From Psammoneis japonica (taxonomy: Eukaryota), in assembly GCA_008632985.1 (NCBI GenBank), contig QPGO01000083.1:62001-98013 (forward strand): a DNA stretch of 36,013 nucleotides, in the 5' to 3' direction. Each line of letters opens with the position of its first letter. Position 1 is the first letter of the stretch. The translations under genes and the position numbers were made by a program. Of this stretch, positions 2,666 through 29,960 are shown piece by piece. The notes beneath the pieces are model-generated. The model was not told the DNA's origin. It made no database searches and worked only from the letters and a program-made list of their open reading frames with translations.

Positions 2666-3086
2666 GTCTTTGTTCATCGCGACTCAGTCTGAAACATCAT
2701 TACTATACAAAACTCGACGTTAAATGTATTGTTTTATTTAACCATGAGAAGCCATTTGGAAAAACCCGCCTCTAAATGTTCATTAATATTTATTCGGAAG
2801 AACCCTTAAACATTTCTCCATATTTGTCCAAAAACAGCTCAAAAACTGTCATTCTTCGATTTCGGACATCTTTCCACTCACAATCCGCAAAAATTAAAAT
2901 GCGAGTACCCGTACTGTATGACAAGCAACGCGAAAGATAGAGTACCTACCGGGCGGTAACGGTATGGGGCCCTACAACCTACAACCTACATCGTCACAAG
3001 AAAACATCAGATCAGATCATCAAGATATAACCCAAAAAGTCTACAGATAGATTCAGAAACGTACCGTACGACCGTGGAACCAAGGA

Positions 3087-4952
3087 ATGATGATCTTGTA
3101 TAGGTGCTGCACATTGGCATTCGTCATGGCATCCTTCACTTCTTCCTCAGCACAAAAGGCGACGAAGCCTAATTTCATCCTCATCATGACGGATGATCAG
3201 GGCATGGATGATTATGGCTTTCGCCAGCCGCCGCTGGAGACACCAAACTTGGACAAGCTAATGAAAGATGGGGTGCAATTCACCCGATTCTACACGGGAA
3301 CCGCATGCGCTCCGACCCGGTCTCAGCTAATGACAGGAAGGCACTTTTTGCGCACGGGAACAGTTGGAGTAGGTTTCGGGAGAGATGCACCGCATCTGAA
3401 CGAGTACATGCTTGGAGAGGCCCTTCAGGATGCCGGATATGTTACTGGCATGGTTGGAAAGTGGAATCTCGGCACCTCAGACGCTGAATTGCCCCATCGA
3501 CGTGGCTTCAACGAAACATGGGAACTGACAGAAGAAGAACTTCGAAACCGCGGCAAGTACAACCACTTTAACGCCCCTTTTACTCACAATGGCATACCTC
3601 GTGGTATTGAGCCAGGCTGGCAGGTAGAGCACGTCACAGACAAAGCACTCCATTTCATTAACAGCAACAAGGAAGAACCATTCTTTCTTTACATTCCATA
3701 CGCACAGCCACACGAACCGTGGCTATGCCGAAAGGAACTCCAAGAAAAGTACATTGAAAAAGGCATCGGAGAATCGTATGCTATGCTCCTTGGCATGCTG
3801 GAGCACATTGACATGCAAGTTGGGCGAATTCTTGATGCACTGGAGCAGCATCGTCTCTCCAACAATACCATAGTCATCTTTTATGGTGATAACGGTCCTA
3901 CTCCAGAGACAAGGCTCCTTGCTCAGGACAGAGATGGTAACTTCAAGCCAACTGGTGAAAGGTATGAAATGAATGACACAGAATGGGCGGCACGTAACCC
4001 GACAGGTTTGCGATCCAAGAAGGCAACCTGTTGGGAGAACGCTGTTCGCAACCGGCTCTCCTTCTATTGGCCGGCAAGACTTAACGCCAAAGTGGTCCAA
4101 GACATGACCATTGTATATGATATTTTTCCGACGTTGCTCCAATTGGCCGGACACTACCAACATTACAAGAACAAAACTGGCGTGCCACGCTTGGACGGCC
4201 AAAGTTTCTGGCGATTGCTTTTTCAAGACAACCCCAGCTGGCCGCAAGACCGTGAGTACCTTGTTGCAAAGCTCGCAATACCTACTAATCATCTAGCTCC
4301 AGATGGCTGGTACTACCGCTTCACTAAGGAGCATTCTCTTCGATTAGAAAAGTCGGAATGCGCACTCGTTTCAGGTCACTGGGTGGTCGTCAACGAAGTA
4401 GGTACATGGAGTTTGTACGACCTTTCGAGTGATCCCGGTCAGGAGAACGACCTCAAATCGGTCCTGCCTGAAAAGTTTCTTCAAATGGCAAACAAATTTT
4501 ATTCTGTGCTGTATGATGTAAGCCACGACACGCATTCGTGGTCGCACCCAATCCAAGTAATTGGACTTCCTGGCATTGAACATCCATACTTGGAGATGTG
4601 TTACATGTATCGCTTCAAGGGTGGGAACAGAGTTTCATGGTTTTACACATTCTTCGAAGAGGTCGGGGCCACTCAGGATCTGGCAGTTCATGTGCTCGAG
4701 TCCGGTACATACAGTGTGATACTTCGCACAGTGCCTGTTCCTGTACGAACCATGGTTCAGTTTCATGTCGGGCAGCAAAAAAAGATTTCCCTTCTCAACA
4801 AGGGCGGTCGCATGCATAACCTTGGTAAGTTTGACTTTGGAAGGGGCAATTATAGCATTGGAATGACCATTGTTGAGTCGGCGAACCTTGAACAACTCCA
4901 AAGAGTGGCTTTCTTCAGTCTCCTTTTGAATAAAGTGAGTGGAGAGACGTAA
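3087..4952 (+). CDS. Secreted formylglycine-dependent (family S1) sulfatase, arylsulfatase A-like
   Basis: 621-aa intronless ORF with signal peptide. Motifs KPNFILIMTDDQG, catalytic CAPTRSQLMTGR (CxPxR), GYVTGMVGKWNLG, PFFLYIPYAQPH, GDNG and LYDLSSDPGQ. Confidence 0.95.
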   Translation: MMILYRCCTLAFVMASFTSSSAQKATKPNFILIMTDDQGMDDYGFRQPPLETPNLDKLMKDGVQFTRFYTGTACAPTRSQLMTGRHFLRTGTVGVGFGRDAPHLNEYMLGEALQDAGYVTGMVGKWNLGTSDAELPHRRGFNETWELTEEELRNRGKYNHFNAPFTHNGIPRGIEPGWQVEHVTDKALHFINSNKEEPFFLYIPYAQPHEPWLCRKELQEKYIEKGIGESYAMLLGMLEHIDMQVGRILDALEQHRLSNNTIVIFYGDNGPTPETRLLAQDRDGNFKPTGERYEMNDTEWAARNPTGLRSKKATCWENAVRNRLSFYWPARLNAKVVQDMTIVYDIFPTLLQLAGHYQHYKNKTGVPRLDGQSFWRLLFQDNPSWPQDREYLVAKLAIPTNHLAPDGWYYRFTKEHSLRLEKSECALVSGHWVVVNEVGTWSLYDLSSDPGQENDLKSVLPEKFLQMANKFYSVLYDVSHDTHSWSHPIQVIGLPGIEHPYLEMCYMYRFKGGNRVSWFYTFFEEVGATQDLAVHVLESGTYSVILRTVPVPVRTMVQFHVGQQKKISLLNKGGRMHNLGKFDFGRGNYSIGMTIVESANLEQLQRVAFFSLLLNKVSGET

Positions 4953-5879: not shown

Positions 5880-6236
5880 TGTCCTTTAGTGCGTCGTTGC
5901 AGCAACGACCTCCGACACGGCACGCTCCAAGCTCGTCGAATACGGGCATGCAGGTTACATCTTTACAAAGAGGCCATTCGGACCTTCGAAGACCTCCTCA
6001 AGAATTACATTGTCCACCACCATCTTTCAGGACGTCGTCGATGCAAGTCCCATTGTTATACCATCATATTCGACCATCCATCGCTGTCCCCAGGCTCGCT
6101 GGCTGTTTCCGTACTTGACTGCCTTTCTGAGGTCTCGCTTACCAATGTCGCGTTGCTCCCGGCGGAGCCTTCCATGTTCCGACGATAAGATCGTGATCAA
6201 GCTTGTATTTTTATTCGAAAAGTTCATCCTTTGCAA
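5880..6236 (-). pseudogene. Truncated remnant with DUF4258-like N-terminus
   Basis: TILSSEHGRLRREQRDIGKRDLRKAVKYG...RWMVEYDGI resembles the S-x-H-(G/A)-x-x-R-x-x-(E/Q)-R-x-I pattern. The ORF stops after 69 aa; downstream frames contain stops. Confidence 0.45.
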
Positions 6237-7347
6237 AGAATGAGAAGGGTCAACGAATTCGACAGCTCGTACTTCTGCCTAAAGATCGCGCCCTAGCTGT
6301 AGTTCAACAAGAGTCAGCTAGAGCTTTTGTTCCTACGGGCCGAAATTTTCTTATCAGAGCCGGTAGGCCAAAGTACTAGGTCAAATTTGCTGGACACATT
6401 CCCCTACGGGACCAATAGCTCTCGATAGACCAATGTGTCACAAGCATTCTGTGTATCAGATACGAATCGCTCGCCAACCATTCGTACGAGTCGTCGCATG
6501 GTATGTACTCATCTCCACAAAGCCGAGCATTCTGATCCGTAGAACCCTGCTACTAGAGGGTAGTCTATCCTCTGTCTTTGTTTTGCTGGGACAGAGAGGC
6601 TGTTTTGGGCGAGGTGAGAGTGAGAGGAGAGAATTGCTCATGTCGGCATATCAATGCATTTGTTCTCGTCGTTCTAAACACACGAACTCAACCACCATTC
6701 GAACGCATATTCGTCTCACGGCATGTCAAGTACCGCCGCCCTCGTAGTCTCCTCTCATAGCAATTGCAAAGCTAAGACAACCACTGTCGTTGTGAATTTC
6801 TGTGCGTTTCCCGTTTCCAGTTGTGTATTTGAAAAGCTAAAAACTTCTACTACCAGGTCCTTATCGGAGCAAAATTCTGGAAACTGCTTGGCCAATAGAG
6901 AAAAGAGTCACGTCTGAACTTGAGGAACGGGCTAAATCCAGAATCCAGCCACATTGTGCTGACGAGACGGGAGCTTGGTCCATTTACCACCAGGCTGTTG
7001 AACAAAGTATTCATTGGCAGCGCGAATCACGTGTCCGCATTCCTGTTGTTGAAACAGTGGAGCTCCTTCTGTACATCCTCTCCAGCGGCACCCCTCATAA
7101 CAAAAAAGGTTTTTTGCCATAGAGGTATCGAACTCAACATTAAACGAACTTTTTCTCGTATCGTCTTCTGGCGGTGCTTCTTGAGCTGACCAACAGGCGT
7201 CTCGTACTGCACCTCTTGAGCATTCTTCATGTGACGTTCTTTTCCCCGCGATGCATGCATTTTCTGGACCTGCGATCCATTGACTCGAGCCATTTGGGTT
7301 TTGTGCTTTGAGACGCGCCGCCTTCGCACCTTCAAAAGAGGAAGATC

Positions 7348-8797
7348 TCTTAGTGGATCGTGTCATTCCTACTACTTCTACAGTACTTAGATGCAGCACA
7401 TCTGTGCTGTGCAGGATCTCTATCAGGTTATGAGCAACGCTTACACAGACGTGCAAGCAAGGCTCCTCTACCACTGCCGACAACACATTTTCCTCTCGTT
7501 TCGTTGTCGACGACACCGGCAGAGAGCGTTTACATCGTAAACTTTGCCGCTCTATCGACGACAACGACGTCTGCGTCTCGGATGCTGATTCACGCCATTG
7601 CTGTTTGTTTTTGCGGCTGCTTGCGTGGGTGTCAGCATGCCTTCTACGCACATCGCGATCTCCCTGGGTACATGCCACAGAGATCCGACACATGCTGCCC
7701 CTACGTGGTGGAACCGACATTGATTTTTATTTTCATTGTCGCTCACCATGGCCCCTGCTAACAGCACCCGTTCGAAAACGGCATCCTCTTGGCGGGACAC
7801 TCTGTCGTCACTCCAGGCCGCCACATCACCTGTGTCGGCCGACGACTCCCCCGTCTCTCCTCCTCCGGCGGAGACTGACCCTGCTTCTGCTGGTGACGCA
7901 ATGGTGGAGGATGCTTCGGTGCCTCACGATGCGCCCACAGCAGAGGATGCAATCGAGGCGGAAGCCACCATTGCGGCGAATGTCGCTGCTCCGGAAGCTG
8001 ATGCGAGCCCTGAACAGATGGAAACCCCTGCCTCTCTCTCGGAACAGCCGCCGCTGCCAGTGCTCCCAACCCTGCCTCCACGCTTGCCGCCTGCCCTGCC
8101 TCCTGAGTGGCCTCACACGCCTCCTGGCAATCCCCCGCAGCCTGAGGAACCTCCCGACCCTCCACACTTTCCTCCGACATCGCCTCGGGCTCTTCTCAAA
8201 ATGCATGAGAGTCATCTTGGCTCGGCTGTTGCCCGCATCCACGAACACAAACGGGCACTGGATGTCTCTACGGAAGAAGTTTCCAGGCTCAAGCGGGAGC
8301 TGCGTGACATCCGTTCGGTCACGAATGATCACGCCTTGGCCACCGCGGATCTCAAACATGCTCGTGATTTTGACCTCCTCCGCACCGAGGTTCAGACCCA
8401 AATGAAAGCAACTGCGGATGAAGCCATCGCTTTGGCTGGCGATGCGGCCAACAAAGCTTTGGCGACACGTGATGCCCAATTCCTGGCAGCTCTCAACAAG
8501 AAGATTGTTCTGGTTTATGAAGCCGCGGAAGCAACGATGCTCGAACGCATCCGTGCCACATCGACGAATGCACAAAACAACATGGCGTCTTTTGTGGCGG
8601 ACCAAACCAGCCGGCTGGAATCGGCTGCCTCGGAAGCCATCCGTGCTGTGGGTGACCACATCGGTGCCACCCGTAAAAAGTTCCAGGCTCGGCTCAAGCA
8701 CGACGTTAAACTGCAAACGGACGACCTGGATGTCTCCTGGTGTGGGGGGGTCTTAGTGGATCGTGTCATTCCCACTCAGACACAGGGATCTCTGTCA
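7348..8797 (+). mobile_element. Internally deleted mini LTR retroelement (Copia-type PBS; TRIM-like)
   Basis: Direct repeats TCTTAGTGGATCGTGTCATTCC...GGATCTCTRTCA at 7348-7425 and 8751-8797. 5-bp TSD AGATC at 7343-7347 and 8798-8802. PBS GGTTATGAGC at 7426-7435, complementary to the tRNA-Met anticodon arm as in half-tRNA-primed Copia. G7 polypurine tract at 8744-8750. Confidence 0.85.
7748..8750 (+). pseudogene. Truncated Gag-like ORF1 (Pro-rich N-terminus plus coiled coil)
   Basis: ORF MAPANSTRSK... lies between the PBS and PPT and runs directly into the PPT/3' LTR with no pol motifs. Confidence 0.6.
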
Positions 8798-9022
8798 AGA
8801 TCTGACAAAATGCTGCCATGGCCGGTTGCCACGAGTGCAATTGTGGATTGTGGCGGCTGACCGCTGGCTGCCGCAAGCGCAAAACAATCAAAATCACAGG
8901 TGCTCTGCGGCACTGTAGATGGAAGCCACGGGAAAGTCAGGTCGTCTGGCCATGACTCGGCTGTGGGCGGGTGGTGCAACCCAGAGAGCAGTGTCGCAGG
9001 AACAACTCCTGCAATCTTGAGA

Positions 9023-10666
9023 CTAAAACAACAGCATTGTCAGCAGCTTGTCATTCCAAACAACACACTGTCTGCCACTCTGTTGTGTTGCAAGAATCAG
9101 TTGCACGGCGCTGCATGAACTCCAGGCCCGCAGGTCACTGAAGCTGGCGTCTTCCAAGCCATCACTTGGAACAGCATTCCTGCTGCCACCCCACACCCTG
9201 CGACCCGGTGAACCAAAGAAGCTCTTTGTCCTTGCCTTCTGTTTCTTCTTGGGTTTGTCCAAGCTCTGGCAAGTCAGAGAGAGCTGTTTTGGCACTGGCT
9301 TGGGTGCTCCATCTCTGTCGACATCGTCCTCAGCTTCTTCATCAAAATCATCCAACAGGGGATGCAATCCAAGATTCAGAATCCCCTCATCACCATCATT
9401 GTTTAGAGGATCAATGAAGCCACCATCCTCACATTGGAAAGGTGGAGGGATCAATGCCGTCTTCTTCAACGTCTCGTCCTCTTCCTGTGAAGCCAGGCAG
9501 TTGATGCAGGCTTGCCTGCCTTTTTTCAAGGCTTGATGCTTGGGGGGTGGTTCTCATCAAATCCAACAACACCTTCATGCTCAAAAAGAAGGTTGTCAGG
9601 GTTGACGTCTCGTCCTCTTCCTGTGAAGCCAGGCAGTTGATGCAGGCTTGCCTGCCTTTTTTCAAGGCTTGATGCTTGGGGGGTGGTTCTCATCAAATCC
9701 AACAACACCTTCATGCTCAAAAAGAAGGTTGTCAGGGTTGACAATGTCAGCCCTGGTTGATGCCGGAGCTCGAATTCTTACAGCATGACTGCCTTCCAAG
9801 ATCTTGGCTTCCATGTGATGGGTCTTGACAGCGCAAGTAAATTCCACATGCAAAGCAACATAATTGATGCCATCGTCTGGGTCTGTCCATGCAAAAACGG
9901 AGGTCGTGAATGCCTTGTCAGTGTGAACTTTGAAGTGCAATGAAACCTGCAGCTTTTTTTGCATTTCGGATGCCAACACATCATCCATGCTGCCAGTGTC
10001 ACTGCCTTTCTCCTTCTTCTTGCCACTGGCAGGGACTTGGGTGGGAGGCTCAGATGGTGCTTTTTTGCAAGCCGCTGTTGTGGTGGCCTTCTTCTTGACA
10101 CTCGTCTTTGCCACGATGTCTTTGGCTTCTCCATCTTTGTCTTTGCCAGCGTTGCTGTCTTCTTCATCGGCTTCTTCCTCCTCGACTGCTTCTTCTTCTG
10201 CCACTGCCACTTCCTCCACAACGTCCTTGTCTTCTCCTTCTCCTTCAGCACTTCTGCCTTTTGCTTTCCCATTTCACTCTTTTCAGACTTGCACTTTGCT
10301 GCAAATGTCGCAAAATGCATGGGTTGCAAGCAAACAGCATGGCAAAATGACATCAACACATCACAACAGAAAAAGGAACGCACATCTGCTGATGCCGTCT
10401 TTCACCAGCTTTACAAAATGCTCACAGGCAGCTTGTCTATGTCCACCAATGGCTTTGTCTGAGTTGGAGTTCCTTTGGTGGCCTCTGAGGTTTTTGTGCA
10501 AGAAAGGATGAACCACGTCGTTGGCCTGGAACTTGTCTTTGATGCAGGCAGGTTCTGCATTGGAGGGATCCCACCCATGCTCTCCTTCAGTCAGAGTGAA
10601 CTGATTGAAGTGCTTGACACACTCTTGAGCTTGTTGTTTCTTCCAGCGGGGCACTTTCAATGACAT
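9023..10666 (-). pseudogene. Accessory ORF of the DDE transposon, disrupted
   Basis: MSLKVPRW...GWDP exon, probable intron 10383-10299 (GTGCGT...TTGCAG), acidic/Lys-rich linker, C-terminal domain AWTDPDDG...PPFQCED. Broken by a frameshift, a stop and a 136-bp duplication. Confidence 0.55.
9471..9742. repeat. 136-bp perfect tandem duplication (2 copies)
   Basis: 9471-9606 repeats as 9607-9742 (GTCTCGTCCTCTTCC...GGGTTGAC) with AC microhomology at the junction. Confidence 0.95.
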
Positions 10667-10849
10667 TGGCTCAGAACTGAGCAAACAAACGCTGAAATGA
10701 CATGAGTGTAAAATGAAAAATCTGAGCACAGTGGACACAGCGAGTGCTGAGCGTGGAATGAGTCTCAACATTTTTGGCACGCTTCGTTTTGTCGGAGAGC
10801 ACTGGCACATGTTCTGTTTTCCAGCCAAATTGGCCGGAAATCGATTTTT

Positions 10850-11305
10850 TGCCGGAAAATGGAATTCCGGCCAGAAATTCTTAAAAAGTCTGTTTGCGTT
10901 TTCCCGCCACTTTGATGCAAGTGATTGCCTCGAGAGAGGGAACTGCGAAGAATCCCATGGCAAAACACAAAAGAAGGACATCAGTGGTGCATAAAACAAT
11001 GGGCAAATTGAATGCAATGCTTCCATGTGAGATGTCACTGTCATCCAAACAAGCCGGAAAACCACTTTTAACAGCCCAAAACCGGCCTGTTTAAGTGCTG
11101 ATTAAATCTTGCAAAGAGGCATTGACTGAACCTGCCCTGTGATTTCATGCATCAGTTACACAGGTCTCTTGTGTGCTGCCATGCACTTCTTTGTGACATC
11201 CTCTTTCCTTGCCGTTGCTCGCATCAAAGTGGCCTGAAATCGCAACAAAAAATGCCGGCAAAATTGGCCGGAAAACCAAGTTCCAGCCGGAATTCCAAAT
11301 TCCGG
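10850..11305. repeat. Long imperfect inverted repeat between the divergent transposon ORFs
   Basis: GGAATTCCGGC (10861) pairs with GCCGGAATTCC (~11286). GCCACTTTGATGC (10906) pairs with GCATCAAAGTGGC (11221). CATGGCAAAACACAAAAGA (~10956) pairs with TCTCTTGTGTGCTGCCATG (~11166). Confidence 0.8.
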
Positions 11306-11675
11306 ACCAAATGAGTAATGTGCTCATTCACATTTTTTAAAGCAGCATGCACAACACAGCAAATGGTGTGTGAAGGTGTCATCAATGTTTGTGTCAACGA
11401 ACAGTCGCATCCACCACAGGTGTTTGGGGGGGTGCTGCCAGCTGGAGTGCCACAGAGGGCTGTTGAGCGATGGTGTTTGCAAACGCACTGGAATGCTGCA
11501 TGAAAGGCCACATGGCAGGGCCCTGCTCTGTCACCAGCAACATGCCAGCGGCTGCCGATTGAGAAGAAAATGAGACACAACACACAAAACGCAAAGCAAA
11601 AAACGTTGACCGACACGGCACCCGCACTGTTGTTGCTGCATTCTGTGTCATTCGCTGACCTGCAACACATCCGAG

Positions 11676-12846
11676 ATGATCACCCAAGTCATTCATGCTG
11701 GCATTGTCACTTGCATTGTGTCTCAACCGGTGTCAAAGAGAACCAAAATCTCCATTTGTGTGACAGAGGATGATTTTGCTTCGCTCGGCAGTGAAGTCAT
11801 GAATCGATTTCCGTGGACAGGAAGCGACACGGTCTTCATTCGGCGATGGGTCTCCCATTTTGTCATTGAACCGGTGGCATGTTCCATCACTTGGAAACTG
11901 CTCAACATCAATCAGCAGGAGCCTGATGATCCGGATGACAAATGTGCTAAACCGGTCCATCTTCTTTGGGCATTGTTGCTGCTTAAGATGCATGGCAGCG
12001 AACACGAGCTCGCAGGGAAGTGGGGTGCTGATGAGAAAACATTCAGAAAATGGGCCTGGATTTTTGTGGAGAAGGTTTCATGCTTAGAGCTTGAGGTGGC
12101 AAGTGGCAACACCAGCATCAGAAAAGTGTTCAACCAAGATGCCAACACAAGAAACTCTCACAACTCAGTTGCTGCTTTTTTGTTGCTGGCTGACATCTGA
12201 CGTCAGATGCTGTGGGCCAATCATTTTGCCGGAGACCAAGGGAATGATTGTGTTGCCACAGTTGATTCTGCAGATTGCAAGACAACAAATCAAGGGAAAT
12301 CTCAGAAGTCATTTCATTTGTTCAAGTTCAAGAAGGCGGGACTGCGATGTGAGGTCTGTGCGAACATTCTAACTGGCGATTTTTGCATGGATTCATGGGC
12401 CTTTTCCTCCCGGAGAATGGCCAGATCTTGCCATCTTCTGACACAGTCTAAAGCACAATGTTGAGAAGAATGAGCAGCTTGAAGCAGATGATGGATGTGG
12501 TGCAGAGGACCCTGACTTTGTAAAGACTCCTGCTGGCATTCGACACATGGAGCCAAAGGCAGTTGCCAGGGCCAGATCCATTGCCAGGAACAAGGAAGAG
12601 ACAGCCAATGACCGTCTCAAGCTCTTTAAGTGTCTTTCCAAATGTTTTCACCACAACATTGAACTTCACAGCCAACGCTTCCGAGCCTGTGCCGTCGTGA
12701 CACAGTTGTCTTTCCAGCATGGCAAGGGCTTGTTCAGCACAGCAGACGAGTGCGGCGCCCTGCAGAAAGCTGCCGATTTGAAGGATGTTCCTCTTCCAAG
12801 CACACTTGAGGATGATTTGCAGCAGAACAATTGTTCTCTTTTGTAA
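11676..12846 (+). pseudogene. DDE_Tnp_4-like (IS5/ISL2EU/Harbinger-related) transposase, hypermutated
   Basis: Motifs HLLWALLLLK, DEKTFRKWAW, TVDSADC (VDGTD), FKFKKAGLRCEV (GLRYEV), GEWPDLAIF, EADDGCG (EADDGY) and EETANDRLK (HETVNxRxK). Intron 12099-12206 has donor GCAAGT. Contains a frameshift and a TGA. Confidence 0.85.
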
Positions 12847-14227
12847 ACTGGGCTGTTTCTGAAAACATGCGATCATGCCCGATGCCGTGCGAACCAAGCA
12901 CCTGCCTTGCCCGAACCTTTTGCTGTCTTGCTTTGTGTGTGTGCATGTGGCGTGCATTCAGTCTCTGTGCTGCAACATGACATGAGTGCAATCAATGAGG
13001 CAGGTTTTGATGCATTTTGTTGAATCGGCCATCATTTGGTGAAACCGCCGGCACCGGGGACAAAAGGTTGACCCGCATCATGGCCAGACGACCTCTGACT
13101 TTCCCGCAGCTTCACAGAGTGAAAACACAGTCACAATGACATCTGGCTCATGGCTCATGATCACTTCTGTGAGTTAGCCAGGGTGGGGCCGGTTGGTCAC
13201 ACACGTTTGGGTTCGATCCAACCATGCAACCAGCCACACCCTGCAGGAAAAGCTGTTGGGGGATTGGTGGCGCGCGAGCAGAAGCAACAAAGCAAAAACA
13301 TGGCATGGTCAAAATGTTGTGAAGCACACAACAACAAGCAATGAGAAGAAACCCAACTTGACCCAGGAAAAGCACATAAATGTTATCCAATGGCTTTGTC
13401 ATTATCTGGAAATACCCGCTCGTAGAGCCGTGAACGGTGTTCGCGTTGTTCGCTATGGTGTGTTGGGCGTTTTGGTTTTCGTGTTGTTTGCCGATAGTTC
13501 ATCTGTTTTCGTGATAGTAGATGTTTTACTGTATACAATCTTAATATATTTTGAGAAGCGCTTCGCGACGACTCTGTTCGGACCGTTAAATGGAAATTTT
13601 TTTATACAGATTCCAGACTTTTTTCGGGGTGTTCTCAGACTTTTGAATAGAAAATTTTTATGTTATGTAAAAGCTTCAGAGAACAACATAAATTAATCTT
13701 CCCTGTAGACCGCGTAGATTTTGCACGGACGAAAATCCACAATCCACCGCATGTCAACTCACTCAGTAGTAATTCTACGTATATTCTACTTACACCTCAC
13801 ACACGCACGCGCGCACACTGAATAACCTCTTATGTAGTATTTATTGATCATAAGTCATTCATAGTCATAAAGAAAACACGTTCGTTAAACAATTCTTCCT
13901 TAAATAGTTGCATTATTTAACGTGGAAAAGTATTTATAAGTCGCGTTTTGCTTTGTATGTTGCACCGTACTGTAGATAGTAGAGATTCTACTTGCAGTAG
14001 TAGTACTATACTCTACAGTAGCTAGTAGTAGCTAGCAGTAGACTAATCTCACAAAACACAGAAAAAGAGCAATCCAAAGCAAATACGAAAAGAAAGTTTT
14101 AGTCGAAATAAAGCGACGATAACACAGGCACAGGCTTGTCCCCATTTGCCACGCCTAACGTGCTTTTCTGTTGAAAAAAGAACGATCAAAATCACTGCTT
14201 TTGATGCAATTTGAAACCGGAATAATC

Positions 14228-17244: not shown

Positions 17245-17900
17245 GCTCGAGGCTTCTCGGCTCCAACCGCACGTAGCTTTCTCGCGCTTGACATGTTGTG
17301 AATCGCGCGTCATCAAACGGCAATGTTTGGCGTCTGCAAGAAGGGTGAATTCTGTGCCCAGCCATTGGCAAAAATGATGGAGTCTTCTGTGGGCTGCGAA
17401 CATGCAAGCTGAGCTCCGAAAATGTCACTGCCTTGCCCCACTCAATGAAACAATAAAAATGCCCAAGTTTCCTCCTGATGCACTCAGCACTCACCATGGA
17501 AAAGGCCAGGATGCAAAATCCAGCTGTTTTGATTGGCTGTTGACTGTGTGTGGTCCACAAGGCACCACACGTTGTCACATCCAGTGGATGTTGCCTCTTC
17601 TTCTTCTTTGCCACCGACAATTTCTGTTGCATGGACAGTGCAGCCACGAGAAAGCAATCACATGCACAACCAATGTTGTGCTTTTGCGGTTCTCTCTTGC
17701 TCACTGCATCCAAACAAATGTCTTGCATGGTCTCTTGTTGTGAAAGCTGTTTTCTGCACCAGCAACCAAGTTGTGGAGCACTTCATCTTTTGCATTAAAG
17801 CCAGTTTTCAGCATCATGAGCAGTGCCACCCCAACAACATCTTTGGTCAAGCTCCCACAAAGCCCAGCTTCATGGGCAACTTCAGCATGCTGCTCTGGTT
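17245..17900 (-). pseudogene. Decayed unknown ORF, paralogous to 33075-34100
   Basis: Shares TCAAACGGCAATGTTTGGCGTCT, CTGCCTTGCCCCACT and CAATAAAAATGCCC with 33140-33345. Peptide GHFYCFIEWGKA...RRQTLPFDDA. Confidence 0.45.
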
Positions 17901-18327
17901 GAACTTGAGTGAGGACATGCTGCTCCCAACATCAGCAGCAAACAACTCTTGAATGGAGCTTCTGACCATGCACTCACGCACCTGTCCAACCCTGCAGAAA
18001 CTTGGCTGTCAAGAGTGAACAGTCTCTAGAAAGTTTGCAAGTGGTGGGCCAATGTCAATGGCACAACTCTCACCGGAGCTTTGTTTGATTCCAAGCATTT
18101 GCGGCATCAAAGAAAATTGCAGCAGTGAACACAACAACTGCCTCAACCTCCTGACCAACAACAAAGACAGAGATGGCACACCTCATGCAAAGAGGAAGAT
18201 GACAGCCAATCTCCCTCTCACAGAAAAAAAACACTGGGCTGCCTCAATTGGCACTCAACATTGGACCCAGCAATGCAACAAACCCCTTTGACAGGGATTG
18301 CCCATGCCACAACAGGGTGGCGGGGCT

Positions 18328-18593
18328 TGACAGAAATTGAAAAAGAGTCAGATGGAAGGAAAACAACAGCCCTTGCTGCTGTCTAAACAGCAGATGTGTG
18401 CCTCCATGCAGAGGCCATTGCAGCGGCCAAGAGACATGTGTTGTGATGTTGGTGCTGCTGTTGTTGTTTTTGTGAGTCATGTGGCTTGTTGTGCAACAAT
18501 GCGTGGAGCCAGGAGCACAGATGTCTGTGTGTGACAAACCAATGTAGCACATGACAAATGCCACACAACTGAAACCCTGTTCAAATCCTGTCA
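18328..18593 (-). repeat. LTR of outer Copia
   Basis: Homologous to 20268-20513 and 24305-24550, with TG...CA ends. Confidence 0.85.
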
Positions 18594-20267
18594 CTCCTCA
18601 TTTTGCTTGAGGAAGCCACAGAAATGGATTCAAAGTTGGATTGGCTGAGAGCCTTGGGATCAAAGTTCCAAAACATGAGAGGATGGAGCAGGTTCCACAT
18701 TTGGGAACAACCTCAGTGTTTGCTGAGAATGTCAGCAGGGTGTTGTAAGAGCCTTCAATGAAATGAAATTTGAGGCAACCATCAGAGGCAATTGCCTCAT
18801 GAGTGTGGTGGCAGAACAAGAGGGTTGTGTGTCGTTTGTGCATCTTGGAGTGCAGGATGGTGGCACTGTCTGCAACTGACTTTTGGTCCCCAAACATGTG
18901 ACAAGTGCAGTGGATCACAATGATGGGGCAATGCAGCATGCAGCACAGTGCTGGCAATCTGCTCCATGCAAGGCCTTGCAGCAGCAAATTTGGACCTGCA
19001 AATTGCAGTTTTGATGACAACATGCTGCCATCAAGATCATGGGAAAAGTTGCAGCCAATGCAATGCTTGATTGGTCCGGTGCTCTTGAGTTTCAACTTGT
19101 GCTTCTCAGCAAGAGCATCAATGACGGCTTGAGAACCCTTCATGGCAAAGGCCAAGTCATCCACATGCACAGCCATGCATTCACAGCAATCTCCATTCCT
19201 GCTGCATGTCCAGATGTTGGGCTCACCATGGCACTGGAAGAAGAAGCCTCTTTGCACTCAAACAATTGGCAAAGTGTTTGTGCCACCTGAGGCCAGAGCT
19301 GTGGAGGCCATGCAGAGCCTTGTGGATGACAACAATGTGACCTTCCAATTTCCCAAATTGAGAACCCACAACAATGCACCGCTTCTCCTTGGTCATGGCT
19401 TTGAGGTGCACATTGCCAATGTCAGCAGCCCAGGTCTCCAACTTGTTGAGTTTGGCCCAAAAAATTGTCAATCCAAGGCTGCAGAGGAACACTGCTCCAG
19501 AGCAGACACTGTCAACTGGGACACATTGGTGAGGTGGCTGTCAGCAGTTGGTCATGCTTTGTGCAGGCTGTCATGTTTCACATCATGCACAAGGTGCACC
19601 TTGATCTTCTTGTGACCTGCAGGAGCACTTAAATCCTTGCAGTGTTCACAGCAATGGAAGATGGTGTGCTCATCAAGATGGGTCATCTCAAGGTCTGTTT
19701 TGTCTCCCCATTTGCAGTTGCCACTGTGTTTGTCAAGGGCCATGGTGTGCTTGCAGTGTGCCCACACTTGCAGCATGACACAGTGCAGAAGGAGCAGAGC
19801 TTGGCCTGGTTAGCCATGCAAAATGGCTTCTTCTGTCATCTTGCAATGGCACAAAAATGTCCCCATCTTTTGGCATCAAGAAGGCCATTCTCACGTGTGT
19901 GAATGGCACAAGTGATGGGGTTGTCCTTGGCAATGATGGCAAGGGGTTTGAATGTGATTTCCTCCTCTCTCGAATGGAGCATGATGTTGTGGCTCAAGCC
20001 TTTCCAAGAGGGGTCATGAGGTCTCAGCAGTTCTTTGTGTGTGGCATGATGTGGCACAACTTCCAGATGGTGGTGATGTCATCATCTTCTTGCTCAATGT
20101 GAAGAACAACATGGTTGCAGGGGCCAGGACTTGCTCACATTCATCATTGTTGATCATGGAGCAAACAAACTTGGTGAGTTCCAGGTTGTCACCAATTTCC
20201 CAACTGTGGTTCTCAATGTTTTTGACAATGTGGCTCTGCAGTGCTGTCCACCACCCTCCTGTGGCTG

Positions 20268-23200
20268 TGGCAGAAATTGAAGATGACTGGGTGGAAGAAA
20301 ACAACAACTCCTTGCTGCTGTCTAAACAGCAGATGAGTCTCCATGCAGAGACCATCACAGGAGCCAAAAGACTGGTGTCGTTGACATCGGTGCTGCTGTC
20401 ATTGTTCTTGTGAGCTGAGTGGCTCAAAAGCAAACTGCATCACGTGACACACATGGAACTAAGAGCACACACAATTGTGTGTGACAAACTAAAATCTTGT
20501 TCAAATCCTGTCACTCCCCAGTTTGCTTGAGGGGTCAACAGCAACAGATTCAAGGTCAGATTGGTTGAAAGCCTCGGGATCGAAGTTCCAAAACATCAGA
20601 GGACAAAAGAGGCTCCAGACTTGAGAGCAACCCCAGTGCTTGTTGAGAATGTCAGCTGGGTTGCGGGAGCCTTCGATGAAATGAAACTCGGGGAAACCGG
20701 AGGCAATTGCCTCACGCACATGATGGAACAAGAGGGTGGTGTGTTGCTTGTGTAACATGGAGTGCGGGATGGCAGCACTGTCCACAACCAACTTGTTGTC
20801 CCCAAACATGTGACATGTTTCACAAATGGGGATGCCAAGGCAACGCAAAGTGATGTGAAGATTGTCAATGGGTGCCTCTGTGAGGTGTCCATCAGCAACA
20901 AGAGTTGCGTCTTGTGCCATCCGTCATGTTTGACGTTGCAGATGAGATGCACCCTGATCTTCTTGTGTCCTGAGTCCTTGCAGTGTCCACAGTTGTAGAG
21001 AACCTTGCACTCACCCAGCTGAGTCATCTCAAGGTCTGTTGCGTCTCCCCTTTTGTGGTTGCCATTGCGCTGATCAAGGGCCAAGGCATGCTTGCAGTCC
21101 CGGGGCACTTCACACCCGTGCTTGCATCGTGGCACAGCACAAAAGGAGTGCAACTTGGCTTGCTGATTGGCCATGCAGAATGGCTTCTTCTGGTGCAGAG
21201 CTGCAGCCCGGAAGCATTTCCAGCCATTGGTCTTGAGCAAACCGTGTTCGCGTGCATGAATGGCACAGGTGACGGGATCGTCCTTGGCAATGATGGCAAG
21301 GGGTTCAGACGTGATCTCCCCATTCTCCCATTCAAGCATGACGTTGTAGCTTGAGCCTTTCCAAGAGGGATCATGAGGTTGCAATGGTCCTTCATGCAAT
21401 GCGATGTGTTGGAACTTCCAGAGGGTGGTGTCCTCATCTTCTTGCTTGATGTGGTGCATGATGTCATTGCAGGCTGGGACTTCCTCTCATTCATCATTGT
21501 TGACAGAGCAAATGAACTTGACTGGTTTGGGGTTGTCTTCAATTTTCCAGTCATGGTCCTCAACAACGGCTTTGATGGTGCAAGCTCTGTGGCTTTGTTG
21601 GTCCTCTTGCGGCTTCATGAGGAAGGTGCGTCCAATGATGTCCTCGGGGTCAAAGACCGGCATTTTGGGCATCCTGATTGCATCCCCATCTGGTGAATCC
21701 AGTGAATCCGCGGAGTCATGTTGGGAGTTGATGATGGGTTCAGCTGATTTCTTGTCAGGAGGGTCAAGATGCAGGTTTGGGGTGGACGGATCACGGGCAG
21801 AACATACGTTGGAGCAACAGAGAATCTTCTGGGTGTCATCAGAGAGGATCTTGAATGTCATCTGATGACCGACATGTTCAGCAATGCCAACAAAGTGACC
21901 ACGCAACTCGCAGGATTTGGACAGCCAGTCAGAATTGTCGAGGTGGCAACACGCAGGTTCCCACCATTCAAAGCGCAGGAGCGAGCTGATGTTGGGCAAG
22001 AGAAGATGCTGTAGATTGCCAGGCGGCAGAGGCTTGCACTCTGTGACATTTGCCAGGATGAGGTTGTTGTCCCTTTTGTTGTGTGCATCAGTGGGTGGTG
22101 CAGTGGTTGAGGCAAGATCATGAGTGTTGGCATGCAAATTGACATCGCCATCACTTCCAAGATGGAGGTTGTGGAGGCTGACAGCTTCCAACTTGTGGCA
22201 GTTGCCGGAACAAGGGGTGCGCAATCCAAGGATGGCGGCCTTGGTGGACTGCGGCAGGCTGTCCCAAATGCACTGGTGGTCTGGCAAAATGCGGCACCAC
22301 TGTTCCTGGGTGAGAGAAGAACTGTGGGTTTGAGCAGCACAAGCCTGAATGATGTCAATGTCACTGTCAATGTTGAAGAACACATCATCATCAGGGTTGT
22401 CCGGAGCCAGGTCATGTGCGCAGATGGCACAGCATGGGGCGCGTGGAGCCTTCTTGGGAATGAACGTGCTGTCACACTTTGCCACTGCTGAAAGTGGGAG
22501 CCCACAGCACTGTTTGTGTGAGAGGCCTCTGCCATTCTGCGTGCAAAACTGATCAGCTTGGTTCTTTGTTGAACGAAGTTCTTCCACAGGATGAATGGTG
22601 TTCTCAAGCATGATGTGTTTCTGGCCAGCAGAGAAGTGGTCTGCACTTGGAATGAGAGCTTCAAACTTGCAAAGCTGGTCCTGCCAGTGAAGTGTGAAGG
22701 CACAGGTGGATCCTTTCCAGGTGCCATCACCAAGGCGAGCAGTGGCAAGATGTGTGAGAAGAGTCGAGGACTCCATGGATGTGCAAGCAGATGCAAGGGC
22801 GCACTTGGACTCATGACACACTGCTTGAGCATCAGAGGAGCCAACATGTTCACAAACAAGTGCCTTGCCTTTGTCATTCTGCAAGATGCATTCAAATGCG
22901 GCGAACATGTGCTTCTGTTGTTCATTGAACAGGGCCTTGTCCTCAGCTGCAGAGGGCTTGTACGTTGGGTCGAGAATGCAGTCGATGTCCTGGGAGCGGG
23001 CCTGTGCGATGACAGAGGTGTGCCACGTGTGCCACTGTTTGTCGGACTTGAGAGTCGTGAAGGTGAGGGGTCATGTTTGATGCCTCATTTAAAGTCACGC
23101 ATGGGGTCACATGGTTTTGGGGGCATTGAGCCAGGAGTGGGAGCAGATGGTGCTGCACCCATGGAGAGGGATGCTGCGTGCTTGGGACTGAGATGACAGT

Positions 23201-24550
23201 CAGTGAACTCCTCATGTGTGAACAAGTTGGGGTTGTTGCCAACATCAGCACCACCGCACGCTTTTGCCATGTGCAGACTAGTCAATGCAGCCATCTGTGC
23301 TTTGCATCCATGTGGCAAGGGCATTTGGTTTGTGCCGTTGTTGCAAACCAGGGCATCCAGTTGTGTCGGAGTAAAAGTGAAGAGATTCTGGTGCAAGTCA
23401 GTGCTGTCAATGTTGAGGGTGGAGCGCAATGGACTGTCTGTGGCTTGATTCAGAACAGTGCCTAAAATTTGTTGCTGCCTGGCGAGAATCATGGTGCAAC
23501 CGTGTGGGTGTCAGGACTGACCAGAGTCGGAGGGTGAGCTTGAAATGACTTGAAACTTGACTTGAAGTCTTGGACCATCTCATGAGTCAGAAGCCACCAG
23601 GCTGTGATGTCCCATTCACAGTCAAATGCCAAGCTTCCTGTCCGGTCCGCAGAGTTGTGCCGGCAAGTCCGAACCTGCAGCTGGCGATGCTTTGGGTTGC
23701 CTGAGAGCAGAGCAATGGGTTAAAAACCCCTGCTGACAAGCCAGTCAGAGGTGGACAAGACCTCCAAACCGTTCTCATTTTACATTGGTTGGATGACCTG
23801 ATCAGGCTGGCCAAATTTGGCACTGTGGAGGGATGAACAAATGTGGGAAATGTGCACCCTCGCCCCAACGCAGGCTGTGATCACGAACTGCTTCCTCCCA
23901 CAGTTGTCCTCATGGACCTTGTAGAACTGCAGAAGACCAGCAATCCGGTGCAGATACGAGGCAGTGGACTTGGCGTGCGTGGAGCAGGGCCAGAGTCAGA
24001 CGATTGTGCAGTGTGCACGTGAACGCATTGGTCTGTCTGCCAATCAGGGTAGAATCCACTGCAGGGAATCCAGAATCTCAGATGTCTGAGAGTTTGGGAA
24101 TTCCTGACCAAACAAATGTCGTCCGTTGAACAAAAGTGTCCAACGACGGCAGGCATTGGATGAATCCAAACGTGTGGGTTCAATCCAATGTCCAGCAGTG
24201 AAGAAGGCAGGTGTGTGCTTCCACCACCAATGTTGCACGTCGTCGAAATTTTCCGATGACGATGATGAATGCTCAATGGATGAAAATGAGCGAGACTGTT
24301 GATCTGACAGAAATTGAAGATGACTGGGTGGAAGAAAACAATGACTCTTTGCTGCCATCTAAATGGCAGGTGAGTCTCTGTGCAGAGACCGTTGCAGCAG
24401 CTGAAAGACTGGTGTCATTGATGTTGGTGCTGCTGTTGTCATTCTTGTGAGCCAAGTGGCTTGAAAGCAAACCACATCACGCAACGCATGCGGAAATGAG
24501 AGCACACACAATCATGTGTGACAAACTGAAATCTTGTTCAAATCCTGTCA
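20268..24550 (-). mobile_element. Nested, internally deleted CoDi-type Ty1/Copia element
   Basis: 246-bp LTRs at 20268-20513 and 24305-24550. TSD GGCTG at 20263-20267 and 24551-24555. PPT AAACTGGGGAG. Gag DFK*GIKHD...DKGKALV; pol FEWWEP, FVGIAEHVGH, LEWENGEITSEPL, VKHDGWHK, FGDNKLVV, HHVREAIA. Protease, integrase core and most of RT are not seen. Confidence 0.92.
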
Positions 24551-24626
24551 GGCTGCACAAGGAAAGCGCACCCGACAATGTCCTTGGGATCAAAGACTGG
24601 CATCTCAGGCATCCCAGCAAATCAGC

Positions 24627-24690
24627 AAAATCCTGCTCAAATTCTGTCACTCTTGATTTTGCTTGAGGAAGCCACTGAAACATGTTCGAA
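24627..24690 (-). repeat. Fragment of a further PPT/LTR junction of the same Copia family
   Basis: CTCAAATTCTGTCACTCTTGATTTTGCTTGAGGAAGCCAC matches 18580-18620. Confidence 0.7.
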
Positions 24691-26267
24691 GTCAGAAGAA
24701 AGACAATGATTCTGCTGTCCAGTTCCTGGCACACAAGGTGGAGTTGCCAAATCTGAGGAATTGTGGCAAGCTCCTGTCCACACCTGTTCTCCTTTTCCTG
24801 TCATCTTCCCACTGGCATTTTGAGCCAAGACTGCCACTGGATCTGGCCACACACCTGCTTGATGCCCTCCCAGAAGCCCCAAGATGGCAGGGCATGATTG
24901 TCTTGTTGAAGGTCTCTCAGTGAAGTTGGAGCTGGACGAGTGCTGGGAGTGGGGGTCAACACAAATGCTGCTCCTTCTGCCAACACCAACAAAGCCATCA
25001 AAGTCAGAGCCAAGATGCCATCTGTCTGTGCTTCTTGATGGCCAATGCACTCCAGCAGCTGTGCACATGTGTGAGTGTGTGCTGCACAAAAAACAGACAA
25101 TTCTCTTCAATTTTTGCTCAGTCACCAACTTGCCACATGATTGCTTCATTGAGTGGCATTAAAGAACAGTGTCTTCCCTTGCACATTTGCCAATGTTTTG
25201 TCACACTTGCAAAAACCGCTGCAGCACACAAAAACGAGTGGCTGCTTTTCATTTCCCGGCGTTTTCATTGTGTGCTGGTTGCATTGCTGCACAATGGTTC
25301 ATTGACTTTGGGAGCAATGTTCTGTTTGTGCTTGTGAGCAAATGAGTTGTCAAAACACAACAAGTGAGTTTGAGGTGCATCTGCAATGTTGCAAATCAAA
25401 CAGTTTTTCTTTTGGCTGGCACAAAGAGCAATTTTGAACCATTGACAAAAGTTGCACAGTTCACAGGCATGCCACATGTGAAACTTTGCATGGAGTGACA
25501 CACTTTTTTGTGCAAGTCACCACAGCGGTGTGCAGTTGTTGTTTTCAATGGGTTTTCTTGATTTTGTGACTGCAGCAGTGGCACCAAATGACAAGCATGT
25601 GGAGCAAACACAACATGTTTCATGAAGAAAATGTGGTGAGTTGTGGTGTTTTTCATGCCCAAAACAGACATGTTGCATTCACAGGATTTTGCATGTTTTT
25701 CATGCACCACAGAAAGCCAGGGCACAAGGTCCCTGAAACAGATCTGTGTGGCACAGAAATGACCACACAGAGTTGAAAGCATTGACCAAGAAGAGGGTGC
25801 AAAAATTTTGCACTTAAAAGTTGGTTGCTGAAATCTCTGCAAGTTTGCAGCTGCTGCACTGAACAAGAGAGAAATGGGGCTTGCAAACAAAACAAAATTT
25901 TGTTGCTCTGATGGCATTGTGTTTTGTTCTCATGAAGCGGAAAGCAGCCAATGCTTTGTGCCGCCAATTTGCTGTTGTGCTGCAGGTGTGCTGTTTGTTG
26001 CTTGTGTTGGGAGTTTGCTTCTCACCAATCATTTGGCAAAATTCCATCATTGGATGATGTCTGCTGCATGGGCTCTCAACAAAGTGTTGGTCAAAAATCT
26101 GAAAACAGAGCTTTGAAGCATTTGTGAATGGAATCATGTTGCTCAGACAAACACTGTCATGTGGAGTGTCAATGGTTTCAGGGGAAAAGCATTCCTTGAG
26201 TCTGAGGCATCAGCCAAGCAGAGAAGCACAGCAGAAGCACAAGAAAAACATCGGCCCAAACCCTTTT

Positions 26268-26288
26268 TGTGTGTGTGTGTGTGTGTGT
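26268..26288. repeat. (TG)10 microsatellite
   Basis: Direct reading; flanked by T runs. Confidence 0.9.
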
Positions 26289-26799
26289 TTTTTTTTCAAC
26301 AAAAGAAGTCCATGTGATTTTGGACCAGTGCACATGGCTGTTGTTGGGAACAGGAAAAATTGGCAGCAAAGACAATGGAGCATCATGAGACCAAATTTGC
26401 CAGAAGACATTGCTTGTGGTGTCAACCACAGCTGGAGGAGATGCTGACAGAGAAAGATCAGGGAGAGACTCCAGGGGACACAGAGTCTGCTGCATTGTGA
26501 GAGGGAGCACATCAAACAAGCCAGTGTTCAACCTGATGTGCAAAAACTCTTCAGACTCCCAATGATGTGCATGAAAGGACATGCACATCTGTGGCAAGAC
26601 TCTGCCCACTGACCCAGTGGAAGCTGCAGTTCAGAGGTGTCATCTTCACAAAACAAGGAACACAATGCTCAACGCCATTTCCAAGCACTGTTGCAGATGG
26701 AAGTGCTTGCTTGACTGGGCTCAGAGAAGATGTGCTCCTGAGGAGAGCGTGCTGGCCATCCAGCTTGAATCTGTCCACAGAATGACCATTGGGCAGAGC

Positions 26800-29700: not shown

Positions 29701-29960
29701 TTGCAGCATCTTTCATCCTGCCATGTTGTGCCACTGCAATGGGTTTGTGTGCAACACCTGCGAGCCTCACAAGCAGCTCACAGAGGGCCGGGCTTCTTCA
29801 GTGTCACCGAGGTTACCCAACAGGAGCAATGTCCTTTCTCAGCTCTGCTTGCAATTCTCCAAAATGTCAAGCTGTCTCAAGCTGGATCTTGCAATTTGCA
29901 AGCCCTGGTTTTGTGTCATTATTTGAAAACAATGCTGAGAGCACCCTGACGGTCATTGGT
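26800..29960 (-). pseudogene. Heavily hypermutated, unidentified coding remnant
   Basis: Colinear minus-strand protein-like fragments (MTVRVLSALF..., DAVDLGEFAMFATP..., QQTIGGMAG..., ELELPKCCSFHSIEW) separated mostly by TGA stops and frameshifts. No family recognised. Confidence 0.3.

Follow-up and report, generated by a model that had tools for sequence, protein, structure and literature searches.

TpA dinucleotides of a dead Ty1/copia retrotransposon in a diatom genome were very probably mutated in place after insertion, sparing the edge next to unmutated DNA

The window, i.e. the whole stretch of DNA analysed here, comprises 36,013 nucleotides of the diatom Psammoneis japonica (positions 62001-98013 of contig C84, GenBank QPGO01000083.1, from the 91-Mb genome assembly GCA_008632985.1 in 597 contigs); labels such as C7, C84 or C317 denote contigs of this same assembly, and labels such as L032 loci cut from them. 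Among its host genes are a DiatomPyrShell-domain (pyrenoid-shell) protein at 158-2008 on the reverse strand (domain E 7e-50) and a sulfatase at 3051-4952 on the forward strand, both TA-normal, as are the two copies of a duplicated beta-propeller gene (Beta_propel, PF09826; 14159-16868 and 30084-33055) that flank a large erased block. The observed/expected ratio (o/e) of TpA amounts to 0.63-0.68 in the gene regions of the window, compared with 0.05-0.16 in two blocks of transposable elements (TEs), where CpA and TpG are raised. The first TpA-erased domain (7801-13376) shows an o/e of 0.07-0.16 in its four segments: the 3' part of a copia element, a 124-bp spacer, an element with 34-bp terminal inverted repeats (TIR) and the start of the next repeat. 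This TIR element (8922-13113), likely a DNA transposon and presumably Harbinger-like by motif, is the erased block adjoining the 3' long terminal repeat (LTR) of the copia element; searches of Pfam and PDB returned nothing for its frames. A perfect 136-bp tandem duplication inside it (9469-9740) is either younger than the mutations copied with it or an assembly slip. The right edge of the domain lies in a multicopy repeat (13170-13808, forward strand). A second and older domain at 17400-29900, with a TpA o/e of 0.05 and a CpG o/e of 0.23, contains copia-like remains.

Positions 7348-8797 are a Ty1/copia retrotransposon of the diatom, dead and internally deleted, whose features are described here along the forward strand. 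It is enclosed by identical target-site duplications AGATC (7343-7347 and 8798-8802). The 5' LTR (7348-7425) is 78 bp long and consists of 47 family bases and two insertions. One of these, of 14 bp (7374-7387, its placement being ambiguous by a few bases), is missing from the other aligned LTRs of the family and is possibly an excision footprint or a repair patch; the other, of 17 bp (7397-7413), is a remnant of the left end of a 2.64-kb Crypton-like element, as C341, C32 and C265 have these 17 bases at the corresponding place of the LTR, followed there by more of the insert. Next follows a primer binding site (PBS; 7426-7435) that complements the anticodon arm of the host tRNA-Met(CAT) over 10 nt. 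The 5' part of the first open reading frame, in the position of gag, extends from 7748 to 8737, where it is cut by the internal deletion, and yielded nothing in Pfam and PDB searches. The deletion junction, a shared stretch of 5 bp (8733-8738), marks the loss, between 8737 and 8738, of about 6.5 kb present in the C317 copy, including integrase (IN) and reverse transcriptase (RT). A polypurine tract (8739-8750) and a 3' LTR of 47 bp with the termini TC...CA (8751-8797) complete the element. Contigs from a public sequencing run cover 7276-7443 and 8747-9274 with zero differing letters, which, as the run is possibly of the source sample, serves as an assembly check only.

The repeats of the window element are true LTRs, because they come with a target duplication, a PBS and a purine tract, and because relatives carry gag, IN and RT between the same repeats. 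One such relative is a 7.9-kb copy on C317 (L032:776-8676) with LTRs of 47 bp at 776-822 and 8630-8676, both starting with TC, and full gag-IN-RT coding between them; gag_pre-integrs, SH3_retrovirus and then RVT_2 follow one another in copia order, the gag_pre-integrs and RVT_2 matches being under the Pfam cut-off. Its RT relatives are all RVT_2, and the named ones are mostly diatom proteins. Terminal direct repeats with target duplications of 4-6 bp, integrase before RT (as seen in the C317 copy, this part being deleted in the window copy), a PBS and a polypurine tract are thus the copia features found. Indeed, identical 5-bp target duplications also accompany the copies on C7, C317, C341, C181, C84b and C32, and one mutated pair was found, on C278. 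The LTR termini depart from the usual TG...CA in that the family has TC...CA, while a sister family at C32 has TG. The CoDi group of Ty1/copia elements in diatoms (Maumus et al. 2009, PMC2806351) is described with the same order of IN before RT, a short target duplication, a PBS and a polypurine tract. Its LTRs, however, measure 153-844 bp compared with 47 bp here, and 23 of its 26 families have TG/CA ends (3/26 do not), in contrast to TC...CA; the 47-bp LTR is therefore an oddity of its own. A literature search for the shortest known LTR gave no usable minimum. Eleven relatives from metagenomes all have normal TA levels (o/e 0.64-1.03). A terminal repeat over 74 bp is present in one, and as a complete LTR pair was seen in none, the 47-bp LTR was traced within this genome only.

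Over the 47 positions shared by the two LTRs of the window element there are four differences (7370 TA versus 8773 CA, 7388 TA versus 8777 CA, 7392 TG versus 8781 CA, and 7421 TA versus 8793 TG), and a fifth TA (7351/8754) is kept on both sides. The original prediction gave these letters and differences correctly, although its abridged quotation passed over the 14-bp and 17-bp insertions of the left LTR. It also held that twin LTRs suffice to polarise the direction of mutation. We dropped this part: a pair times a change, but TA versus CA could equally have arisen by C>T, and polarity from the pair alone is logically impossible for TA/CA differences. Only the TG/CA site narrows the ancestor by itself, to TA or CG; the other sites of the pair give timing, not direction. 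Retention of TA at four of the five family sites in the left LTR and at one of five in the right is, for this pair alone, within chance (Fisher p=0.21).

Judged by the family alignments, TpA is the ancestral state at the changed sites, as predicted for all four that differ between the LTRs; three-state family sites, conserved tyrosines and the PBS agree in this. The prediction had named a consensus of CA/TG or CG in other copies as the outcome that would speak against it. No such consensus is seen in 19 LTRs of the family (19 of 20 loci found by pattern; C86, a misfit to the LTR expression, was left out): TA, CA and TG occur at all five sites, with 22 TA, 29 CA, 44 TG and no CG among 95 cells, and the LTR at C265 has TA at all five. 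Likewise, an alignment of ten copies to C317 has 2611 columns at depth >=6, of which the 41 with any TA hold 95 TA, 74 CA, 123 TG and no CG cells. Internal sites that bear CG form a separate class, without TA at depth >=6 and with two mixed sites at depth >=5. The protein level was considered in 12 tyrosine columns conserved in 120 RT-RNaseH proteins from outside this genome (120 listed of 371 hits). In the copies of this genome, the 68 cells of these columns contain 36 Cys, 19 His, 6 Tyr, 6 Trp (all in one column) and 1 Ser, so that 55 of 68 are Cys or His, and the fate differs from copy to copy; in columns of conserved His, by contrast, 34 of 35 cells kept His and none became Tyr. Finally, the PBS pairs with the host tRNA-Met(CAT) only when position 7429 begins a TA, which the window copy has kept and which has become TG in seven and CA in two of nine other copies.

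In ascomycete fungi, repeat-induced point mutation (RIP) destroys DNA rich in repeats where it lies, through transitions at particular dinucleotides of both strands. A reading opposite to ours, in which ancestors with CA/TG or CG became TA by RIP or by CpG decay and the left LTR is the more mutated one, is permitted by the twin LTRs by themselves. We give it practically no weight: tyrosines turned into Cys or His without the reverse change from His, the PBS needs TA for its match, CG is absent from the LTR sites, and young copies have TA in the majority with private CA and TG. CpG decay does occur in these elements, at separate sites, and the C:G>T:A changes creating TpA that characterise RIP are not those found.

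The changes were made on chromosomal DNA after insertion rather than on RNA or cDNA, because members of an LTR pair and sides of a target duplication differ, CA and TG are about equally frequent, and strand runs are lacking. In this respect the original prediction was right. Apart from the window element, 15 of 21 differences within five other LTR pairs are at TA sites, and the two sides of the C278 target duplication differ solely by TA-type changes. In each copy, CA and TG occur in roughly equal numbers. A test for same-strand clustering in ten copies gave p=0.025 for one and no signal for the rest, with a concordance of 0.50 at distances of 31-1000 bp; in young Crypton-like copies (see below) 37 of 74 pairs were concordant. 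Agreement at distances of 2-10 bp (216 of 373 pairs) may reflect sequence context. Same-strand processivity was thus seen neither in the copia copies nor in the young copies, and ADAR- or APOBEC-type editing of RNA or cDNA before integration was rejected on the equality of CA and TG in each copy, the differences within LTR pairs and the mutated target duplication.

Within the window element, retention of TA depends strongly on position. The stretch 7348-7800 (TpA o/e 0.70) forms a spared edge of the hypermutated domain: of the TA sites that the remaining copies alone define for the family, 9 of 16 survive left of 7800, where 2.2 would be expected, and 2 of 36 to its right, where 3.8 would be (p=1.2e-4). 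The 450-bp cut was chosen once the data had been viewed, and cells are not fully independent across copies. Defining the sites without the window copy replaced a version of the test in which site classes depended on it (p=0.001). The left part itself is graded, with 6 of 7 sites kept and then 3 of 9. Across the family, the number of TA sites kept in an LTR correlates with the TpA o/e of its outer flank (rho 0.64, p=0.002, n=20 LTRs), also without the window element (rho 0.60-0.61, p<0.01, n=18). The claim that the LTR nearer the erased block is the more mutated one is therefore true for a positional reason, namely the edge gradient and the flank correlation, and not on the strength of the pair. 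The C317 copy is the mirror image of the window copy, since its spared LTR, facing normal DNA, is the 3' one; position therefore decides, not the identity of the LTR or a 5'/3' bias of reverse transcription. Where erased DNA surrounds the 5' end of other copia copies, about 1 of 7 sites survives there. On the right side of the window element, the spacer (8798-8921) has a single TA, and the repeat at 13170-13808 keeps 2 of 7 TA sites up to 13400 and 23 of 27 beyond. This right edge, some 230-260 bp into the repeat and shorter than the left one, is estimated from five near-identical comparators with a post hoc cut. The left flank (6055-7345) has a paralogue of about 83% identity on C8 (L050) without the copia insertion; TA changes between the two go both ways (4 versus 3 in the last 500 bp), with no clear spill.

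The 2.64-kb Crypton-like element appears to show the same process at an early stage. It has a GATAC-type target and occurs, whole or in part, at one LTR position in the window remnant, C341, C32 and C265, and elsewhere as seven young copies. In the copies compared, a short direct repeat of the GATAC type is present at both ends, without TIR or LTR (the right end of L079 was not located, and the left end of L077 is altered). Its open reading frame matches Phage_integrase clusters by features (0.94) in a language-model protein atlas and has no match in Pfam or PDB; we call the element Crypton-like, a putative tyrosine recombinase being suggested by these language-model features together with sequence motifs. 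CryptonS tyrosine-recombinase transposons (PMC3212892) are described as likewise having short direct repeats at their termini, lacking TIRs and long repeats and showing integrase-like features, but with TATGG termini, which differ from the AGATAC-like termini here. At loci L071-L080 the left end has a hairpin, and two copies carry its 2-base loop in inverted form. The LTR with the insert on C265 (L073) stands alone with all its TA sites intact, and five flanking bases on each side mismatch, so that it is not a simple solo LTR.

The seven young copies are 98-99% identical and reside mostly in TA-normal DNA. Mutated cells amount to 81 of 763 at TA sites (50 CA and 31 TG), compared with 6 of 917 at CG and 8 of 8162 for other A/T transitions. 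TA changes therefore precede CpG decay. Per base, TA is about 50-fold more active than other A/T bases. The load ranges from 1 to 27 mutations per copy, and 15 of 37 sites were struck in both ways, to CA and to TG; the uneven loads hint, as a suggestion only, at a process that is on in some lines. The outermost 500 bp at either end hold 7 mutated cells of 349, the interior 74 of 413 (site-level p=7e-6; context predicts 59.9 at the ends). Even L075, only 200 bp from an erased block, has 0/21 hits at that end and 10/59 inside. Since young copies in TA-normal DNA are mutated in their interior while their ends are largely spared, the process is set off inside an element and does not depend on a neighbouring block. 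An older copy, inserted on C32 within an erased domain, is erased to its ends, with 1 of 28 left-end sites kept.

The base that follows matters. In the young copies, T-A-pyrimidine was mutated in 65 of 525 cells, compared with 9 of 301 for TAR, and a purine before the T is weakly preferred (57/525 versus 17/301). The TTAG sites of the LTR survive best because the mutated A prefers a 3' pyrimidine. In the copia family, A>G is near background at AA (82/3261) and at GA (96/4724); the row for CA context was left out of use as biased, CA>CG sites being classed separately. Polymerase eta leaves a WA signature, and the unraised rate at AA argues against a signature of this kind.

A close counterpart is known from the rhizarian Bigelowiella natans (Mettrop et al., bioRxiv 10.64898/2026.01.13.699255), for which TpA-specific T/A>C/G changes giving TpG or CpA are reported in integrated NCLDV and virophage DNA. 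In mutation-accumulation lines, the same preprint reports a de novo rate about 1000-fold over background in two viral regions, in some lines only; it proposes ADAT2 as the enzyme, as a proposal only, and names RIP as an analogue. The two cases are alike in that transitions are restricted to TpA and confined to regions, the preprint describing TE domains as enriched among TpA-poor sequences; here, too, the TpA-restricted transitions affect both strands and are confined to foreign or selfish DNA, in the blocks whose o/e is given above. They differ in that TpA persists in the rhizarian (Rho 0.45, as given in the preprint), whereas in the diatom LTR, Crypton-like and TIR elements are erased to an o/e of about 0.05-0.1. 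The preference for TAY, the spared edge of about 0.5 kb, the lack of strand runs and the lead over CpG decay are seen here and were not found in the main text of the preprint. No report of such mutation in diatoms was found in the literature searched, which was mostly open-access and included a word search of bioRxiv 2025.10.24.684338; the B. natans preprint alone was returned. Compared with RIP, the chemistry is opposite: RIP changes C to T and creates TpA, whereas here TpA is removed, G+C is raised and same-strand runs are absent.

Taken together, we consider it probable that, in the dead copia copy, TA was turned into CA or TG in place after insertion, some 450 bases beside unmutated DNA being spared, through the likely action of a chromatin-guided DNA adenine deaminase. 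The descriptive part of this explanation we hold with high confidence. An enzyme of the TadA/ADAT fold that converts A to inosine would be the likeliest candidate, put forward with something short of even confidence. An A:T pair of either strand becomes G:C, site by site and without same-strand runs. Mutation starts in the interior of an element and leaves an edge of about 0.5 kb beside an unmutated flank. Between closely spaced elements, as at the 3' LTR of the window copy, 124 bp from the erased TIR element, domains fuse and the edge vanishes, so that the window copy combines a spared left edge with a fused right side. The domain would correspond to silenced TE chromatin with CG methylation and H3K9/H3K27 marks, which would steer the deaminase. 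A profile search of the genome for MafB19-deam gave five matches, which we take to be an ordinary deaminase set, including ADAT2-like and TadA-like frames, as in most eukaryotes. A deaminase acting on single strands might leave same-strand clusters, and that none were found is a point against it. We favour a TadA/ADAT-fold deaminase guided by silent chromatin because engineered TadA-derived editors are reported to leave A>G/T>C changes at TA motifs genome-wide (PMC13225742) and because diatom TEs are described as CG-methylated islands overlapping H3K9/H3K27 marks, with methylation by DNMT5 (PMC9998398). CG methylation itself would account for CG>TG/CA only, the TA changes being at separate sites and earlier. 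The C5 DNA methyltransferase family has 27 matches in the genome, eight of them at E < 1e-28 and some clustered on C297 and C10.

The data are better explained by a domain whose edges are spared than by spreading, and no neighbouring block is needed. That mutation entered the copia copy from the right-hand erased block and faded towards the left LTR, as the original prediction had it, would explain the monotone gradient along the copy, the erased spacer and first 230 bp of the next repeat, the mutated target duplication of C278 and one TA>TG that, by comparison with the C8 paralogue, lies about 53 bp beyond the left LTR; we nevertheless judge it unlikely, given that mutation starts from the middle of young Crypton-like copies whose flanks are TA-normal, that L075 is free of hits on the side of its erased neighbour and that TA changes are present in both left-flank paralogues. 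What stands of the predicted spreading is a spill-over into neighbouring DNA over long times, evident in the mutated target duplication, the erased spacer and the edge of the next repeat; as a source of mutation it is not required by the young copies, which spare about 500 bp per end. Spreading may be a slow second phase of one process rather than an alternative. Nor do we see much room for a homology-sensing process like RIP with reversed chemistry, in which repeats would be mutated upon pairing, except at the ends of the paired stretch. Multicopy targets and spared ends would suit this very unlikely reading, but ends within erased DNA are not spared (the copia 5' ends and the insert on C32), one high-copy repeat stays largely TA-rich, and the hypermutated NCLDV region of B. 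natans is reported as single-copy (bioRxiv 10.64898/2026.01.13.699255). RIP itself responds to duplicated sequence during the sexual cycle; here, indirect evidence favours position over homology.

As to the base attacked, the sequence is equally compatible with an attack on the A or on the T, the change from TA to CA/TG being symmetric and T>C indistinguishable from A>G. An oxidised or alkylated thymine that mispairs with G, for which the link of 5hmU to TE silencing in dinoflagellates (PMC11572971) offers a parallel, or an error-prone polymerase during repair in methylated DNA, where the 27 methyltransferase matches would be in its favour, seems rather improbable to us. A Tet_JBP profile search of the genome gave zero matches, but its control was also silent. 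Against a polymerase stand the near-background rates at AA and GA and the scarcity of changes outside TA in the young copies, and since TA changes precede CpG decay, repair of deaminated 5mC is not needed. It is highly improbable that the left 450 bp were refreshed from an unmutated copy, whether through gene conversion or through recombination with cDNA: an all-TA LTR does exist at C265 and insertions and deletions have shaped the left LTR in the past, but the closest matches elsewhere reach about 92% identity and are mutated without exception, with no unmutated internal donor among 50 matches, the left part is itself partly mutated as a gradient rather than a tract, and the edge effect recurs in other LTRs and in another TE class.

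The twin LTRs of the window element illustrate, on a small scale, a genome-wide process. What had been measured in a single rhizarian alga, and there in two viral regions, now extends to the transposons of a diatom, where it is near completion. The preference for TAY, the lack of strand runs, the lead over CpG decay and the spared edges of about 0.5 kb are testable rules that limit which enzymes, and which ways of targeting, come into question. Such mutation removes TAA and TAG stops as well as tyrosines and adds no stops; dead elements consequently keep long open frames and escape RIP-type indices. Divergence between LTRs is inflated, so that LTR dating fails in such genomes. More tentative still than the enzyme is a wider proposal, namely that diatoms and chlorarachniophytes may share a natural DNA adenine deaminase dedicated to genome defence. 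Steered by silent chromatin, it would edit TpA in new transposons of every class, starting in their interior earlier than CpG decay sets in and halting about 0.5 kb from active DNA. If true, an equivalent of RIP acting on A:T pairs would be spread across SAR lineages, and adenine base editors could be modelled on a natural enzyme.
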